Shown here in pieces: positions 5,070-58,172 of a stretch of DNA of 64,000 nucleotides. This DNA is from Alphaproteobacteria bacterium (GTDB taxonomy: Bacteria > Pseudomonadota > Alphaproteobacteria > UBA11222), in contig SHWM01000001.1 in assembly GCA_009693835.1 (NCBI GenBank), forward strand, positions 9,571 to 73,570, read 5' to 3'. The notes under the pieces were generated by a model. It did not search any database and had not been told where the DNA came from. It worked only from the letters and a program-made list of their open reading frames with translations. The position numbers were made by a program, and so were the translations under genes. The first letter of the stretch is position 1; each line of letters begins with the position of its first letter.

Positions 5070-5398
5070 TCAGTCACTAACCGTGACGTCAGCCGCTTCC
5101 ATTTAATCGGCTGGATCTAATACGGGTATCAAGGCCAGTAGTGAAGGTTCGCAGGTGACAACAAACCTGCCGGTCTTTGCCACTGGCCTCCCTTTGTCAC
5201 CGGCAGGTTGAGACTGGCTGTACTTGCGCCGTTTCCCTGAAGCAAAATGTTTTTAGGTTGAACCGGGGGTTCAAACAAAAAGCACAAAATTGCTCCAGAC
5301 CCTGTTGCCGGTGCTTCGTCTGACATGATGATGGTTGCGCTCCGGTACATCTGGATATTTCCCAGAGCAGAATGATTTTAGGTTTGTCCATGCCAGAA

Positions 5399-5507
5399 CT
5401 TCAGCCTGTCACCCCGGATTTACTCGCCACGGCGAAGCAGGAGCTCTCGCCGCGCTGGCGCAGCGGGTCGCTCGGGCGTAGCCGGGTTCCGGGGTGACAG
5501 GCCGAAG
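5399..5507. mobile_element. MITE-like element with ~19-bp terminal inverted repeats (CTTCAGCCTGTCACCCCGG ... CCGGGGTGACAGGCCGAAG)
   Basis: Perfect or near-perfect inverted termini are seen directly. A related copy lies at 56744-56873. The element is intergenic between the histone-like gene and the ATPase pseudogene. Confidence 0.6.
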
Positions 5508-52218: not shown

Positions 52219-54522
52219 ATGGGCGTTTTTGCTGTGGGACAGCCTTACCGGCGCAAAGAGGATGACCGGTTTATCATCGGCAAAGGCCGCTATGGCGACG
52301 ATGTCAATATTCCAGGTCAGACCTATGCCTGTTTTGTGCGCTCGCCCCATGCTCATGCCCGGATTCTGGGTATTGATGGGGCTGATGCGCTGGCCGCACC
52401 CGGGGTAATTGCCGTGCTGACCGGAAGTGACATGGCGGCGTCGGATCTTGGCGGCATGCCCTGCATTGCGGAACTGCCGGGCCGCAATGGCGGACGGGCC
52501 AATATCAAGCCTTACCGTTCGGCGCTGTGCATGGGTGTCGCCCGTCATGTGGGCGATCCGGTGGCGATGGTAATCGCAGCGACATGGGCGCAGGCGCGGG
52601 ACGCTGCCGAGATGGTGATGGTGGAGTATGAGGAATTGCCGGCGGTGACGGAAGCGATCGAGGCGCTGAAACCGGGCGCGCCGCAGATCTGGCCCGAGGC
52701 GCCTGGCAATCTGGTGGTCGACTGGGAACTGGGCGACCGGGCGGGCACAGAGGCGGCGTTTGCCGGGGCGCATCATGTGACGCGGCTGCGGCTCGTGAAT
52801 AACCGGCTGGTCGCCAACGCCATGGAGCCGCGCATGGTGATCGCCGAATATGATGCGGCCTCGGATCACTATACCGTCCACACCTCAACCCAGGGCGTGT
52901 TCCGCTGGCGCGGACTGGTGGCCGAGGCGGTGTTCCGCATTCCGCAGGAAAAGATGCGGGTGCGCACCTATGATGTGGGCGGCAGTTTCGGCATGAAGGC
53001 GTTTTTGTACCCGGAACAGATTGCGGCCATCTGGGCGGCGAAACATATTGGCCGGACGGTGAAGTGGACGGGGGAACGCTCCGAAAGCTTTCTGAGCGAC
53101 AATCAGGGCCGCGATCAGATCAATGACGCAGAAATGGCGCTGGACAGAGACGGGCGCATGCTGGCCGTGCGCGTAAAAACCACCAGCAATGTCGGCGCCT
53201 ATGTTTCGGTGATGGGGCCGGGCGTGTCCACCATCGGCGCGGGCGGGTTGCAGGTCGGGGTCTATGCTATCCCGGTAATGTATCTGAATGTGACGCCGGC
53301 TTTCACCAACACGACGCCGACGGACGCCTATCGCGGCGCCGGGCGGCCCGAGGCCGCCTATATCATCGAACGCCTGGTGGACGCCGCCGCCCGAGAAATG
53401 GGCATCGCCCCGGATGAATTGCGGGCGCGCAATTTTATCCGGCCAGACCAGATGCCCTATGCCAATGCGGGCGGATATACCTATGACAGCGGCAATTTTC
53501 TGGAAGTTATGAACGAGGCCAAACGGCTGGCGGACTGGGACGGGTTCGCGGCGCGCAAACGCCAACGCAGGGCGCGCGGCGAACTATCCGGCATCGGCAT
53601 GGCCTATTATGTGGAACGGGCGGGCGGCCCGCCGATGGAAACGGCGCGGGTGGATGTGCTGCCAGATGAAACCATCCGGGTGTTCATGGGCAATCAATCC
53701 AACGGCATGGGCCATGAAACCGTCTATGCGCAGATCATGGCGGATGCGCTGGGCGTGCCGTTCGAGCGCATCAGCGTGACCAGCGGCGACACCAGCGAGC
53801 TTCCGGCAGGCGGGCTGTCGGGCGGCTCCGGTTCCGGTTTGATGGGGGGCGGCGCGGCCACGCTGGCCGCCGAGGCCACCATTGCAAAAGGCCGGCTGAT
53901 CGCCGCCGAGCAACTGGAGGCGGCCCCCGCCGATATTGAATTTGAAGCCGGGCATTTCAGGATTGCGGGCACCGACCGTTCCATCAGCCTGTGGGACACG
54001 GCGCGCGCCGCCGGCCCGCAAGGGCTGGGCGCAAACGGCGAATATCACAATACGCCGTTTCAGTTTCCCAATGGGTGCCATATCATCGAGCTGGGCATCG
54101 AGCCTGAAACGGGGATCATCCGCATCCACAAATATACGGCGGTGGATGATTTCGGCCATGTCCTCAATCCGATGATCGTGGAGGGCCAGGTGCAGGGCGG
54201 CATCGTGCAGGGCCTCGGCCAGGCGATGGGCGAGCACGCGGTCTATGACCCGGGAACCGGACAGATGCTAAGCGGCTCGTTTCTGGATTACTGGATGCCG
54301 CGCGCCGACGACATGCCGGACTTTGACATCGCCTATCTGAACACGCCCTGCACGACCAACGAGATGGGCATCAAGGGCTGCGGCGAGGCCGGATCAACCG
54401 GCGCGCCGCCAGCCTTCATCAACGCGGTGCTGGACGCGGTCGCGCATCTGGGCATCCGGCACCTGGACATGCCCCTGACGCCGTTTGCCATGTGGCAGGC
54501 GCTGCAGGGGGCGCACATCTGA
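52219..54522 (+). CDS. Xanthine dehydrogenase/aldehyde oxidase/CO-dehydrogenase-family molybdopterin-binding large subunit (CoxL-like)
   Basis: The ORF runs 52162..54522 with a probable start at [19 protein letters not shown]. It carries Ald_Xan_dh_C and Ald_Xan_dh_C2 domains with the GGGFG-type motif (GGSFGMK). No [2Fe-2S] (CoxS) or FAD (CoxM) subunit genes are adjacent. Confidence 0.85.
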
Positions 54523-54609
54523 TTATGTGACCGTATCGCGGGAGCATAATCTGAGATACATTCAGGCTAAATTACTAAGCTATAATATTCTATTTGCTGA
54601 GGAATACGG

Positions 54610-55971
54610 ATGCTGAGTCGTCTGCGCTTTACTAATTTTAAGGCTTGGGGGAAGGTTGACTTGGGGTGTGCGCGGGTGACCGGGTTGTTTGGGACAAATT
54701 CCTCGGGAAAAACCAGCATTCTCCAGTTTCTATTGATGTTGAAACAAACCAAGGAAGCGACCGACCGGGCCATATCTGTGGAGTTGAACGGGGAATATGT
54801 GCAGCTCGGCACGTTCCGTGACACAATCCATCTTCATGACGAAAAAGGTCCATTGAAATTAATGTCGAGTTTGTGCGTGATAATAATCTTGTATTGAACG
54901 ATCCAACGCGTGGGCCAAAAGCGGTCCTCGTTAGCGCGAAGTCATTTACCCTTGAGGCGAATGTCGCATCAGTAAAGGGGGCGCCGCGCACGAAGCTGCT
55001 GAAGTATGGCATTGGTGATTTTAAATTCTCGTTACAGCCGCGAAATGGAGATGATAAGCAGTTCGAGTTGAAGCTGGATGGGGCAAGTCAACAATCAGTT
55101 TTCAAATTTATCCGCACTCAAGGGCGAGCCTGGCAGTTGCCGGGCCCGGTTAAAATTTATGCCTTTCCAGATCAGACTCGCGCCTATTTCCAGAATGCCG
55201 CATTTCTTTCTGATCTTGAGGTAGCGTTCAAGGAAGAGATGGATCGTATTTTCTATCTGGGGCCTCTTCGCGAATATCCGAAGCGGGACTATCTTTGGGC
55301 GCGATCCCGCCCTAGCGATGTAGGCCAACGCGGAGAAAAGGTAATCGACGCCATTCTTGCGGCTACCGGGGCTAAGGAAACTAGGAACCTTAGCCCTAAG
55401 TCACGTCATAAGCCATTTCAGGATATGATTGCCCACTGGCTGCGCGAAATGGGTTTGATACATGAGTTCAAGGTAGCGGAAATCGCGGCGGGCACTAACC
55501 GGTGGCAGGCGCGTGTTCAGACGAAGCCCGGATCTGCGGAGGTGCTGCTCACTGATGTCGGATTTGGTGTTTCACAAGTGCTGCCCGTCATTACTCTACT
55601 CTATTATGTGCCGGAAGGATCAACAGTCATTCTGGAGCAACCAGAGATTCATCCGCATCCGCTGGCTCAGGCTCATCTTGCCGATCTGATTCTAAACGTG
55701 GCGCAGCACAGAAAGATACAGGTAATCTTGGAAAGTCATAGCGAGCACCTGCTCCTCCGGCTGCAGAGACGCATTGCAGAAAAAAGCTATATGCGAGGAC
55801 GTCAAATTATATTTCTGCGAGACTCATCGTGGTGAATCCAGCCTTGTTCCGCTGAACCTTGACATGTTTGGCAGCATAGATAACTGGCCAAAAAACTTCA
55901 TGGGCGATGCCTTTGGTGAAACATTAGCGGCTGAAAAAGCACGCCTCAAGCGGATGCAAGCAAATAGATAA
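54610..55971 (+). pseudogene. DUF3696-type ABC/AAA_21-like ATPase (candidate defence ATPase), interrupted by two homopolymer frameshifts
   Basis: Piece 54610..54897 has the Walker A LFGTNSSGKTSILQ after a LRFTNFKAWG N-terminus. Piece 54873..55835 has Walker B and the H-loop region (VILEQPEIHPHPLAQ; ILESHSEHLL). Piece 55774..55971 continues the DUF3696-like C-terminus (VKLYFCETHRGESSLVPLNLDMFGSIDNWPKNFMGD). The frame changes at an A5 run (~54842-54846) and an A6 run (~55780-55785). GC is about 47% against about 60% for the flanks. Confidence 0.65.
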
Positions 55972-56471
55972 TGCGTTATGTCGTGGATACGAATGTGGCT
56001 ATTGTCGCCAATGGTTATTCGAACCCGTCTAAAGGCGAGAAGCCTCCGTCGATTGAATGCCGTCTCGAAACTTTGAACTTTCTTGAGAGATTGCTAAGCA
56101 ACGGCAAGATCGTCCTTGACGATGGCGGTGCCATTCAGGCGGAGTATCATAGATATCTCAACCCTCGTGGTCAGCCGGGGATGGGTGACCGCTTCTATCA
56201 GGAAGTATTAAACAGTGCTCCTGAGCGCATAGAACGGGTCGACTTGCCAATGAACGCTAACGGCGAATACGAGCACTTTCCAAGTCACATAGACCTTCGG
56301 AGTTTTGATAGGGATGACCGTAAATTCACGGCTTTAAGTTGTAAGGAACGTATCCCAGTCGCAAATGCGACCGATTCAGATTGGCTGAACTATCGTGACA
56401 TTCTTGCACAGCATCATATTTCGGTTAAATTTGTCTGTGGGTGCGATCAGCGAAAGTGGTTTTTAAAATAA
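55971..56471 (+). CDS. Hypothetical 166-aa protein with N-terminal PIN-like motif (MRYVVDTNVAIVANG); candidate nuclease effector partnered with the upstream ATPase
   Basis: Its ATG overlaps the TAA of the ATPase gene (tAATG), which indicates translational coupling. An hhhhDTNV first strand and several downstream acidic residues are compatible with a PIN/PIN-like fold. GC is low. Confidence 0.5.
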   Translation: MRYVVDTNVAIVANGYSNPSKGEKPPSIECRLETLNFLERLLSNGKIVLDDGGAIQAEYHRYLNPRGQPGMGDRFYQEVLNSAPERIERVDLPMNANGEYEHFPSHIDLRSFDRDDRKFTALSCKERIPVANATDSDWLNYRDILAQHHISVKFVCGCDQRKWFLK

Positions 56472-56478
56472 AAAATTA

Positions 56479-56700
56479 TTATAGGGATATGCACCGTTTA
56501 TCGGGCTGTAAGCTTAATGTTGAATGTCCCTCAACCCCCGCCTTCGCCACAAACGTAACCCCCGGCGGCCCGTCAAAATGCGCGTCGCAGGTCAGCAGCT
56601 CGGCGCCGTGTTCCAGGGCCGTGGCGTAGACAATCGCATCGGCAGTGGCGAATTTATGCAGGCGGCAGAGTTCCGCCGCCGCCAGCGAGATTTTGGTGTC
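56479..56700 (-). pseudogene. Truncated VapC-family PIN toxin remnant (C-terminal ~60 aa only)
   Basis: Reverse-strand translation gives LDTKISLAAAELCRLHKFATADAIVYATALEHGAELLTCDAHFDGPPGVTFVAKAG, a typical VapC C-terminus. The N-terminal half is missing and the ORF ends at the CTAG-flanked element at ~56700. Confidence 0.55.
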
Positions 56701-56743
56701 TAGAGCGGTATGATTTTATATTGAATCACCCCGATCACTGTGT

Positions 56744-56873
56744 CACCTGAGCCTGTCCCCGGGCTGGCCAAAGGCCAGTCCCGGGGACACTTGTTGCGGG
56801 GTCCAGGGTACAATACGCAGGCTTACCCTTGTGGCCCTGGACCCCGGAACACAAGCGGGGTGACAGGCTGAAG
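56744..56873. mobile_element. MITE-like element with nested palindromes, related to the 5399-5507 copy
   Basis: Its termini are cacctgagcctgtccccggg ... ccggggtgacaggctgaag, and the right end is near-identical to the right end of the 5.4-kb copy. An internal perfect hairpin gtccccgggctggcc-aaa-ggccagtcccggggac and a second ggggtccaggg/ccctggacccc stem are present. TCTAGA-like sequences lie at 56698 and 56906. Confidence 0.55.
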
Positions 56874-56984
56874 TTCTGGCATTTGCAAACTTAATATCAT
56901 CATGATCTAGACTTCCATCCAGCCAGATTGCGTCATTCAGGGGGCATATCCAGTCCGGTTCATTCGGGCGGCCGCCTGCGGAAA

Positions 56985-58172
56985 TTATTTTCCCTGAATG
57001 ACCTTGGCGTCGCGCAGGCGCTGGATTTCCGCATCGGACAATCCAATCAACTCGCCAAAGATTTCCTGATTATGTTGGCCATATTCGGAAATCAGCGGCC
57101 GCGCCCGGCTGTCGCCATAGTGGGTGCGAAGCGGCGTATTGGGCATCTTGAAGGTGCCCGCGCCATCGTCCGGGGTGACCTGCGATCCGCGCGCCGCAAC
57201 CTGCGGCAGGTTCATCGATTCCTCCATGGTCAGGAAACGCGTCACCGGACAGCCACCCGCACTGATGATCCGTTCCACCTCGGCGGCCGTATAATCCTGC
57301 GCCCATTCTTCAATCGCCGTCATCAGCCCTTCCCACGCAATAAAATGCTCCTTGGTGTTGAGCGGATATTTTTCCTTCCATTCCGGTTTGCCAAGTGCGC
57401 TCAGCAGATCGGCGTAATTTTTATTGGTCATGGGCATGACGATGAAAAATCCCTCTTTCGCCTTCAGGGGGATGATTACCGGGCGGCCATATTTCGAGGG
57501 AAACTGCGATTCATGATATTCATAGGACAGCACATTGTGCATGACATCGAGCATGGAAATGTCGATGCGCTCGCCCTCGCCCGTGCGCTCGCGGCGGAAC
57601 AGGGCGGCGGTGATGGCGGCCATGGCATGCGTGGCGCTCATAAAATCGGCCGTGGCGTCATTGCCGCGCTGCGGCTTTTTCAGCATCGGCTCAAACGACA
57701 TTTTGGACAGCTCCCATCCGGCTGCCGCGTGGATGATCGGCGCATAGGCCGACAATTCCGAGGCAGGCCCGGACTGGCCAAATCCGGACACCGAGCAATA
57801 GATTATGCCCGGCTTGCGGGCGCGCATGGAATCATAATCCAGCCCGTATTTTTTCATCACGCCGGGGCGGTTGTTTTCCAGCACCACGTCGCATTTGTCG
57901 AGCAGGCGGTACACGAGATCAATGGCTTCAGGCTTGCCCAGATCCAGTGAAATGCTTTTTTTGCCCGCATTTACATGCGCAAAATTGGTGCTCTTGCCCT
58001 TGCGGCGCGGAACGCCGGTACGCATATAATCTCCCCCTGGGGCTTCCAGCTTGATAATTTCTGCGCCCAGGTCCGCCATCAGGCGGGTCGCGTAAGGTCC
58101 TGCAATATAGGCCGAAAAATCCAGCACCCGCACACCTGCAAGCGCGCCCTTTTCTGTTGTTGTTCCTGACAT
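56985..58172 (-). CDS. CoA-transferase family III (CaiB/BaiF-like)
   Basis: The ORF runs 56985..58256 with a probable start at MSGTTTEKGALAGVRVLDFS. The family signature is VRVLDFSAYIAGPYATRLMADLGAEIIKLE, and the conserved Asp region is present. Confidence 0.85.
   Translation of the reverse strand: MSGTTTEKGALAGVRVLDFSAYIAGPYATRLMADLGAEIIKLEAPGGDYMRTGVPRRKGKSTNFAHVNAGKKSISLDLGKPEAIDLVYRLLDKCDVVLENNRPGVMKKYGLDYDSMRARKPGIIYCSVSGFGQSGPASELSAYAPIIHAAAGWELSKMSFEPMLKKPQRGNDATADFMSATHAMAAITAALFRRERTGEGERIDISMLDVMHNVLSYEYHESQFPSKYGRPVIIPLKAKEGFFIVMPMTNKNYADLLSALGKPEWKEKYPLNTKEHFIAWEGLMTAIEEWAQDYTAAEVERIISAGGCPVTRFLTMEESMNLPQVAARGSQVTPDDGAGTFKMPNTPLRTHYGDSRARPLISEYGQHNQEIFGELIGLSDAEIQRLRDAKVIQGK

Follow-up and report, generated by a model that had tools for sequence, protein, structure and literature searches.

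In this study we analyzed a stretch of 64,000 nucleotides (nt) from an alphaproteobacterium of the lineage UBA11222 (GenBank assembly GCA_009693835.1, contig SHWM01000001.1, positions 9,571 to 73,570 of the forward strand). The whole stretch is referred to as the window, and positions are counted from its first letter. The subject is a two-gene cassette at 54610-56471, which encodes an ATP-binding cassette (ABC) ATPase and a small PIN-domain protein. The cassette is very probably a stand-alone copy of the HEC-03 defence system in which the ATPase was inactivated by two fixed deletions, and most likely represents a non-functional relic. The pair is an already catalogued and tested defence system; a preliminary description of this DNA was right on its architecture and wrong on its novelty. 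The two genes are as follows.

54610-55971, plus strand: pseudogene of the HEC-03 ABC ATPase, 454 codons once repaired (Pfam, PADLOC)
55971-56471, plus strand: intact gene for the 166-aa PIN-domain protein, the HEC-03 effector, with acidic residues D6, D50, E58, D113/D116, and D135

HEC-03, the "Hma-embedded candidate 03", consists of an ABC ATPase and a VapC-like PIN protein (Payne, Hughes, Fineran & Jackson, bioRxiv 10.1101/2024.01.29.577857). In Escherichia coli it led to fewer phage plaques, both genes were needed, and it was toxic upon induction with isopropyl-thiogalactoside (IPTG) (bioRxiv 10.1101/2024.01.29.577857). The system is represented in PADLOC-DB v2 by two models, the PIN profile PDLC04147 with 159 positions and the ATPase profile PDLC04148 with 458 positions. 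The 166-aa protein matches PDLC04147 with E=7.7e-27. The pieces of the ATPase match successive parts of PDLC04148 with E=6e-32, 7.7e-122, and 7e-18, and positions 1-452 of the 458 in this profile are covered by the repaired ATPase, which reaches 604.9 bits (E=2.6e-182), compared with 610.9 bits for the intact orthologue from locus L003. The next-best PADLOC models for the repaired ATPase follow at a wide distance, with 196 bits for NsnB of the Menshen system, 173 bits for PDC-M55A, and 91 bits for AriA. The window pair thus shows both profile matches on adjacent, co-oriented genes with the ATPase first. HEC-03 calls for both genes to be intact and the ATPase gene carries a 1-nt and a 2-nt deletion, so the cassette is a pseudogenised member by descent. 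The preliminary description could place the pair in no named system, and regarded a match to one as speaking against its claim; such a match was found for both genes. Note that the naming of the components is reversed between the two sources: HEC-03A is the PIN protein and HEC-03B the ATPase in PADLOC, while Payne et al. use HEC-03A for the ATPase and HEC-03B for the PIN protein.

The ATPase gene is split into three open reading frames (ORFs) at 54610-54897, 54873-55835, and 55774-55971. Pfam domains AAA_15/AAA_21 and DUF3696 (PF12476, E=1.6e-9) were found on these pieces. The Walker A motif GTNSSGKTS is located at 54691-54717, the Walker B motif VILEQPE at 55626-55646, and the motif ESHSEHL (H-loop/Sen1-type) at 55731-55751, followed by the DUF3696 C-terminal helix at about 55795-55923. 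The stop codon TAA shares one base with the ATG of the 166-aa ORF (TAATG), and the same junction is present in the orthologues L003, L005, and L007. Once repaired, the window ATPase displays 88% amino acid identity to the intact orthologues of L003 and L005. The large AAA_21/ABC ATPase with a DUF3696-like C-terminus in the preliminary description agrees with the Pfam matches, all of the motifs it quoted were found, and the overlap it reported between the ATPase stop and the start of the 166-aa gene can be read directly from the sequence.

The assignment of the second gene to the PIN family is based on a structure model, the PADLOC model, and the Pfam matches of other family members. The 166-aa window protein itself gave no match in Pfam or NCBIfam, and a profile search against PDB sequences returned noise only, such as dynein light chain with E=0.17. 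Among other members of the family, PF13470 (PIN_3) was matched in 13 of 35 and PF01850 in seven. An AlphaFold2 model built from a 35-sequence alignment has a mean predicted local confidence (pLDDT) of 92 and a predicted template modelling score (pTM) of 0.87, and a Foldseek search with it returned VapC2, FitB, and VapC21 as the best matches with probability of about 1. The family carries an insertion of about 15 aa after strand 1. D50 and D135 do not vary across 83 representatives with 32-51% identity to the window protein, and D6, E58, D113, and D116 are kept in at least 90% of them. This set corresponds to the D-E-D-D type expected of an active PIN domain, and all of the conserved residues are kept in the window protein. 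Judged by its model, the 166-aa protein is a PIN nuclease with an intact predicted acidic site. The PIN-like nature first suggested for it, for which an AlphaFold and Foldseek comparison had been proposed, is thus supported by the fold, and together with the profile matches this sustains the proposed architecture of an ABC ATPase with a DUF3696 tail and a coupled small PIN nuclease. The family comprises 1334 cluster representatives at 50% identity with E<=1e-3, of which 852 pass E<=1e-10.

The co-occurrence of the two genes was surveyed in GTDB species representatives, with 80 loci encoding a PIN homologue of 36-59% identity, all from species other than that of the window. In 79 of the 79 evaluable loci, the gene immediately 5' of PIN on the same strand encodes an ATPase homologue; the remaining locus begins inside the PIN gene. 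An uninterrupted full-length ATPase match ending 6-51 nt before the PIN match was found in 68 of the 80. The pairing of ATPase and PIN is therefore obligate across genomes. About 8-10 of the 80 pairs are embedded in Hma systems, between the DUF1156 methylase and the DUF499 protein and beside the SNF2 helicase, and this context was also found at the metagenomic locus L008. No homologues of SNF2, DUF1156, or DUF499 are present in the window; Hma is the discovery context of HEC-03 and not a requirement of the PADLOC model. The pair is also carried on twelve plasmids from Aeromonas, Acinetobacter, Tistrella, Azotobacter, and Rhodococcus, where the genes are annotated as 'DUF3696 domain-containing protein' and 'hypothetical protein'. 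No homologue is encoded in phage records.

The two lesions of the ATPase gene were located by MAFFT alignment against the intact 454-aa orthologues L003, L005, and L007, which are metagenomic, share about 83% DNA identity with the window, and occupy the same site 3' of coxL.

54842-54849, plus strand: frameshift 1, a 1-nt deletion at about 54846-54849, at or adjoining an A5 run; the original frame stops at 54897
55781-55786, plus strand: frameshift 2, a 2-nt deletion at about 55784-55786, at an A6 run and accompanied by substitutions

The three-frame translation places the DUF3696 tail back in the first frame because the deletions add up to -3 nt. The same broken gene was found with 100% identity over 2575 bp in the Logan assembly of SRR8561390, and with two single-nucleotide polymorphisms (SNPs) over 2575 bp, both in the PIN gene, in that of SRR8561391. 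The ENA assembly ERZ1305449, which was compared by gene calls and not by DNA, gives identical calls of 95, 320, and 166 aa. An artefact private to one assembly is unlikely, since the same broken arrangement recurs in these three other assemblies. The A-runs are absent from the intact orthologues at both sites: GAGAAAAG and GAAGGAACAG. It follows that the A5 and A6 runs are to be regarded as part of the lesions rather than as a conserved slippery signal. The ratio of nonsynonymous to synonymous divergence (dN/dS) is 0.08-0.12 for the ATPase, equal to the value between the two intact orthologues (0.085), and 0.08-0.10 for the PIN gene. The ATPase value indicates that the inactivation is recent relative to the divergence. 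From these comparisons we regard the window ATPase gene as a true, recent pseudogene. Similar damage is rare among the 80 surveyed loci: only L025, with a frameshift, and L072, with 1.3 kb inserted between its two genes, look comparably affected. The two SNPs of SRR8561391 are located at window positions 56181 and 56264; one results in M71V, where the other strain has the family-consensus V, and the other is synonymous.

A working mechanism can be proposed for an intact HEC-03, in which an oligomer of the ATPase would act as infection sensor or switch. In AlphaFold 3 models of Menshen, the PIN-like domain of NsnC is placed between two DUF3696 tails of NsnB (PMC12065111). By analogy with NsnB and NsnC, the DUF3696 tails of the HEC-03 ATPase would hold the PIN protein. 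Once phage is sensed, the ATPase would license the metal-dependent RNase activity of PIN on RNA, by which phage production would be blocked. In the window, the locus is most likely non-functional because both genes are required for defence (Payne et al.) and the ATPase is broken. Translation of the PIN gene is probably reduced as well, since ribosomes now terminate at 55835 and leave a gap of 136 nt to the coupled start. The neighbouring vapBC module was destroyed too, at the edge of a palindromic element.

A distant branch of HEC-03, whose PIN proteins are 33-40% identical to that of the window, carries an additional gene directly 3' of PIN for an RNA ligase of about 230 aa (PF09414, E about 2e-33). 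It was found at seven loci, all matching PF09414.

L098, 9535-10236: RNA ligase gene, on the Aeromonas veronii plasmid NZ_AP022291
L077, 10513-11175: RNA ligase gene
L082, 1143-1829: RNA ligase gene
L084, 5119-5799: RNA ligase gene
L087, 10525-11190: RNA ligase gene
L088, 10525-11175: RNA ligase gene
L090, 10360-11022: RNA ligase gene

No PADLOC model matches this ligase, and the word 'ligase' is absent from the HEC-03 preprint (10.1101/2024.01.29.577857). These loci may represent a three-gene variant of HEC-03, which hints at RNA cleavage that can be repaired. PIN is predicted to cleave RNA, with the position of the ligase gene as indirect support.

The pair could instead be an addiction or toxin-antitoxin (TA) like stabilisation module in a local graveyard of TA genes, with PIN as the toxin and the ATPase as its keeper. 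The VapC-like fold of PIN and the toxicity of HEC-03 on induction in E. coli would fit this, as would the vapBC or higB-like modules that flank the slot in relatives and the AbiEii and Hok/Gef genes found beside the pair on Aeromonas plasmids. However, that cells with an intact PIN but a dead ATPase form a viable population speaks against the ATPase as an essential antitoxin. Defence was moreover shown directly, with both genes needed (Payne et al.), and the pair often lies within Hma defence systems. We therefore hold this explanation to be improbable. Similarly small is the probability that we assign to a more speculative proposal, according to which the lesions at the A-runs would be a reversible off-switch of a costly or toxic HEC-03 with PIN kept for reactivation, or PIN would have a role independent of the ATPase, and separately a so far undescribed three-gene form with a dedicated RNA ligase would exist in other genomes.

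Another explanation attributes the frameshifts to errors in sequencing or assembly; the living organism would then have an intact ATPase. Indels associated with homopolymers are indeed a classic error type, and the dN/dS of the ATPase gives no sign of relaxed selection. Nevertheless, identical indels occur in the two Logan assemblies from separate runs, one of them two SNPs apart; the gene calls of ERZ1305449 agree; and the second lesion is a loss of 2 nt plus substitutions, which is no simple miscount of run length. Such errors are thus very unlikely. The least likely explanation is a recoding or phase-variable switch formed by the frameshifts, in which -1 and then +1 slippage, or variation in run length, would leave some cells with full-length ATPase and a working HEC-03. 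In its favour, both indels are at or adjoining A5/A6 runs, their sum of -3 nt restores the frame of the DUF3696 tail, the remaining ATPase is undamaged (604.9 bits), and PIN is intact. Against it, a run of five to six A is short for either phase variation or efficient slippage, and one molecule would have to undergo two independent events of low efficiency; the run lengths are equal in all four assemblies, and the intact orthologues have no A-runs at these sites. The two ATPase frameshifts at A5/A6 runs were already noticed in the preliminary description and are now located against three intact orthologues. It had left inactivation, phase variation, and sequencing artefact side by side; inactivation is favoured, and the other two are disfavoured by the same indels in four assemblies and by runs of 5-6 nt.

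Several points weigh against the reading of the cassette as a dead copy of a defence system. The PIN ORF is intact and conserved beside the dead ATPase, so that an ATPase-independent role could persist. Both indels are at A-runs, where rare transcriptional or ribosomal slippage could yield traces of full-length ATPase. The evidence for the frameshifts consists of assemblies and not of reads, and the assemblies with the same indels may share related samples and sequencing chemistry. The only experimental source for HEC-03 is a preprint (10.1101/2024.01.29.577857), in which defence was shown in E. coli; the function of the window copy, as of any alphaproteobacterial copy, is a prediction from sequence. 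The trigger of HEC-03, the substrate of PIN, and the contact between ATPase and PIN are putative in every HEC-03 copy.

The comparison with other systems further delimits the pair. In the window pair as in HEC-03, the ABC ATPase has a length of about 455 aa, ends in a DUF3696 tail, and is followed on the same strand by an overlapping gene for a VapC-like PIN protein of about 160 aa; the hidden Markov models (HMMs) match end to end, and close relatives of the window pair are embedded in Hma (helicase-methylase-ATPase) at L008, L018, L023, and L068. The two differ in that the window ATPase is frameshifted and the locus stands alone, with no Hma genes in the window. Menshen (NsnABC) is similar in that its ABC ATPase, NsnB, carries the same C-terminal helix of DUF3696 and the window ATPase scores 196 bits on the NsnB model, and in that NsnC begins with a PIN-like domain predicted to dock between two DUF3696 tails (PMC12065111). 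However, NsnA (ParB/DUF262) is absent from the window locus, where there is room for two genes between coxL and vapC. The window PIN retains its catalytic acids and lacks a toxin domain fused to its C-terminus, whereas the PIN-like domains of NsnC are catalytically dead adaptors. Membership in Menshen was rejected on the basis of only two genes and a 166-aa, PIN-only partner with conserved acids.

PARIS (AriA/AriB) and Septu (PtuA/PtuB) likewise combine an ABC-ATPase sensor with a small nuclease held by the C-terminal region of the ATPase, and the window ATPase gives a weak match to AriA of 91 bits. Their effectors are TOPRIM/DUF4435 (AriB) or HNH (PtuB) instead of PIN, and their ATPases have no DUF3696. 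Both were rejected, since the partner has a PIN fold and matches neither AriB nor PtuB in PADLOC. AbiL was rejected as its partner genes are missing or different. The effector of the window pair has the VapC-type PIN fold with acidic active-site residues known from VapBC, and a genuine vapC remnant adjoins it. In contrast to VapBC, the pair has no VapB-type antitoxin and its upstream partner is a 454-aa ATPase; the PIN protein also falls below the Pfam PIN thresholds and has the insertion of about 15 aa after strand 1.

The neighbourhood of the cassette comprises the following features.

52219-54522, plus strand: coxL-like gene, the conserved 5' neighbour of the cassette
54523-54609, plus strand: AT-rich intergenic leader preceding the ATPase gene, in which a TATAAT hexamer lies at 54581-54586 and GAGGAA directly before the ATG; the promoter is putative and read from the sequence
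56530-56703, minus strand: 3' remnant of a canonical vapC (PIN toxin), PF01850 with E=9.6e-8 at profile positions 72-115 of 120
56698-56912, no strand: non-coding palindromic repeat element of 215 bp, similar to a miniature inverted-repeat transposable element (MITE), called from 21-nt imperfect terminal inverted repeats and its fold
56985-58172, minus strand: CoA-transferase gene, the 3' boundary of the segment

Between the coxL-like and CoA-transferase genes, the segment thus holds the two-gene cassette on the plus strand, a gene fragment on the minus strand, and the palindromic element. A scan for promoters and terminators on the plus strand returned nothing, with no sigma-70 promoter called there by the consensus scan, and an Rfam search of 54400-57100 gave zero matches. 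The GC content is 0.46-0.50 over 54500-56600, whereas it is 0.638 in the coxL-like gene and averages 0.579 across the window. The low GC is confined to the two-gene cassette (ATPase 0.50, PIN 0.47), and it is found neither in the vapC remnant (0.63) nor in the repeat element (0.54). The low-GC island of the preliminary description was therefore measured as a drop over 54500-56600, but the remnant and the repeat element that it included are not GC-poor.

A protein 100% identical to the coxL-like product places the source of the window as an uncultured alphaproteobacterial metagenome-assembled genome. The site directly after coxL is a variable slot. Relatives share the upstream synteny of peptidase M3, MaoC, DAHP synthase, CTP synthase, SecG, and coxL, and the slot is occupied by HEC-03 in the window, L003, and L005. 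In L092 (8328-9230) and L093 (2368-3270), where coxL is 85% identical, it holds a gene for a 300-aa SIR2-like protein with a GAGSS motif, followed by an intact vapCB. The matches of this protein are weak, with E=5.5e-6 to the PADLOC SIR2 model and E=0.004, below the cut-off, to PF13289; it may be an alternative defence cargo of the same hotspot. In L094-L096 the slot contains an HTH_3 gene. L094 has an extra vapC/FitA-like pair at 2243-2886, inserted 5' of coxL with the DAHP synthase gene on one side and the MaoC gene on the other. Across this clade, the conserved coxL region appears to be dotted with small TA modules.

In L003 the cassette is bracketed by two coxL 3' ends (312-523 and 2513-2724; 212 bp, 89% identical), and after the second of them begins an ORF that by eye resembles the HigB toxin. 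This duplication suggests that the cassette arrived or was exchanged by recombination through coxL, with the old 3' end left behind. The synonymous divergence (dS) of the cassette genes is 0.36-1.26, in line with the 0.38-0.98 of the adjoining 3' end of coxL. This indicates that the lineages of the window, L003, and L005 inherited the cassette from their common ancestor. A recent horizontal acquisition in the window lineage was rejected on the same grounds. The cassette is old in the clade, yet its low GC has not drifted toward the genome value. The idea of a hotspot acquired by horizontal transfer is thus retained as far as the island lies in a variable slot with differing cargo, and abandoned for a recent acquisition in this lineage.

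The vapC remnant comprises only codons of about 70-127, for some 56 residues at the C-terminus; the 5' part of vapC and the whole of vapB are missing from the window. It aligns by tblastn with 82% and 79% amino acid identity to residues 70-125/127 of the intact VapC in L092 and L005, which corroborates the truncation described earlier. Intact VapC orthologues have 126-127 aa, and an intact vapCB is found at the same place in L005, L006, L092, and L093. The remnant was rejected as a complete vapBC, since PF01850 is covered at positions 72-115 of 120 only, with no vapB and no 5' part of vapC.

The vapC homology ends at 56703, coinciding with the left end of the repeat element. The terminal inverted repeats of this element match over 21 nt at 76%, with nested inverted repeats (I1, I3, and I10) and TCTAGA, itself palindromic, at both ends; its DNA fold has a predicted energy of -56.6 kcal/mol (z=-7.5 against shuffled controls). 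The Logan contigs L001 and L002 end inside the element at 56739, and an exact 25-mer taken from it had no match in JGI metagenome contigs. Genes for a ParA-like protein, an S24 peptidase, a DUF952 protein, and a DHO dehydrogenase, which lie 3' of vapBC in relatives, are not in the window. Their absence implies that the element marks a deletion or rearrangement, and not a simple insertion. The MITE proposed earlier holds as a short non-coding element with terminal inverted repeats and a strong fold; it is plausible but a structural call only, and mobility and multiple copies are putative. A related palindromic element lies at window 5390-5507, with which the 56698-56912 element has in common an exact module of 27 nt, TGCCAGAACTTCAGCCTGTCACCCCGC (or its complement). 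In the former, the module forms an inverted pair around a core of about 70 nt, and an additional 18-nt match to 56698-56912 is present.

For annotation, a standard PADLOC run would label the pair as HEC-03, with a broken ATPase. In this alphaproteobacterial clade, a small hotspot lies 3' of the coxL-like gene; its cargo is exchanged between HEC-03, SIR2-like, and HTH genes, and TA modules flank it. A natural HEC-03 locus with a null ATPase and an intact PIN in a viable population argues that the ATPase is not a simple antitoxin of a constitutively toxic PIN. The RNA ligase in one branch of HEC-03 and the DUF3696 tail common with NsnB provide leads on the RNA target and on the docking of the effector, respectively. 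The three-gene form with RNA ligase, if true, would point to repairable RNA cleavage as the mechanism of defence.

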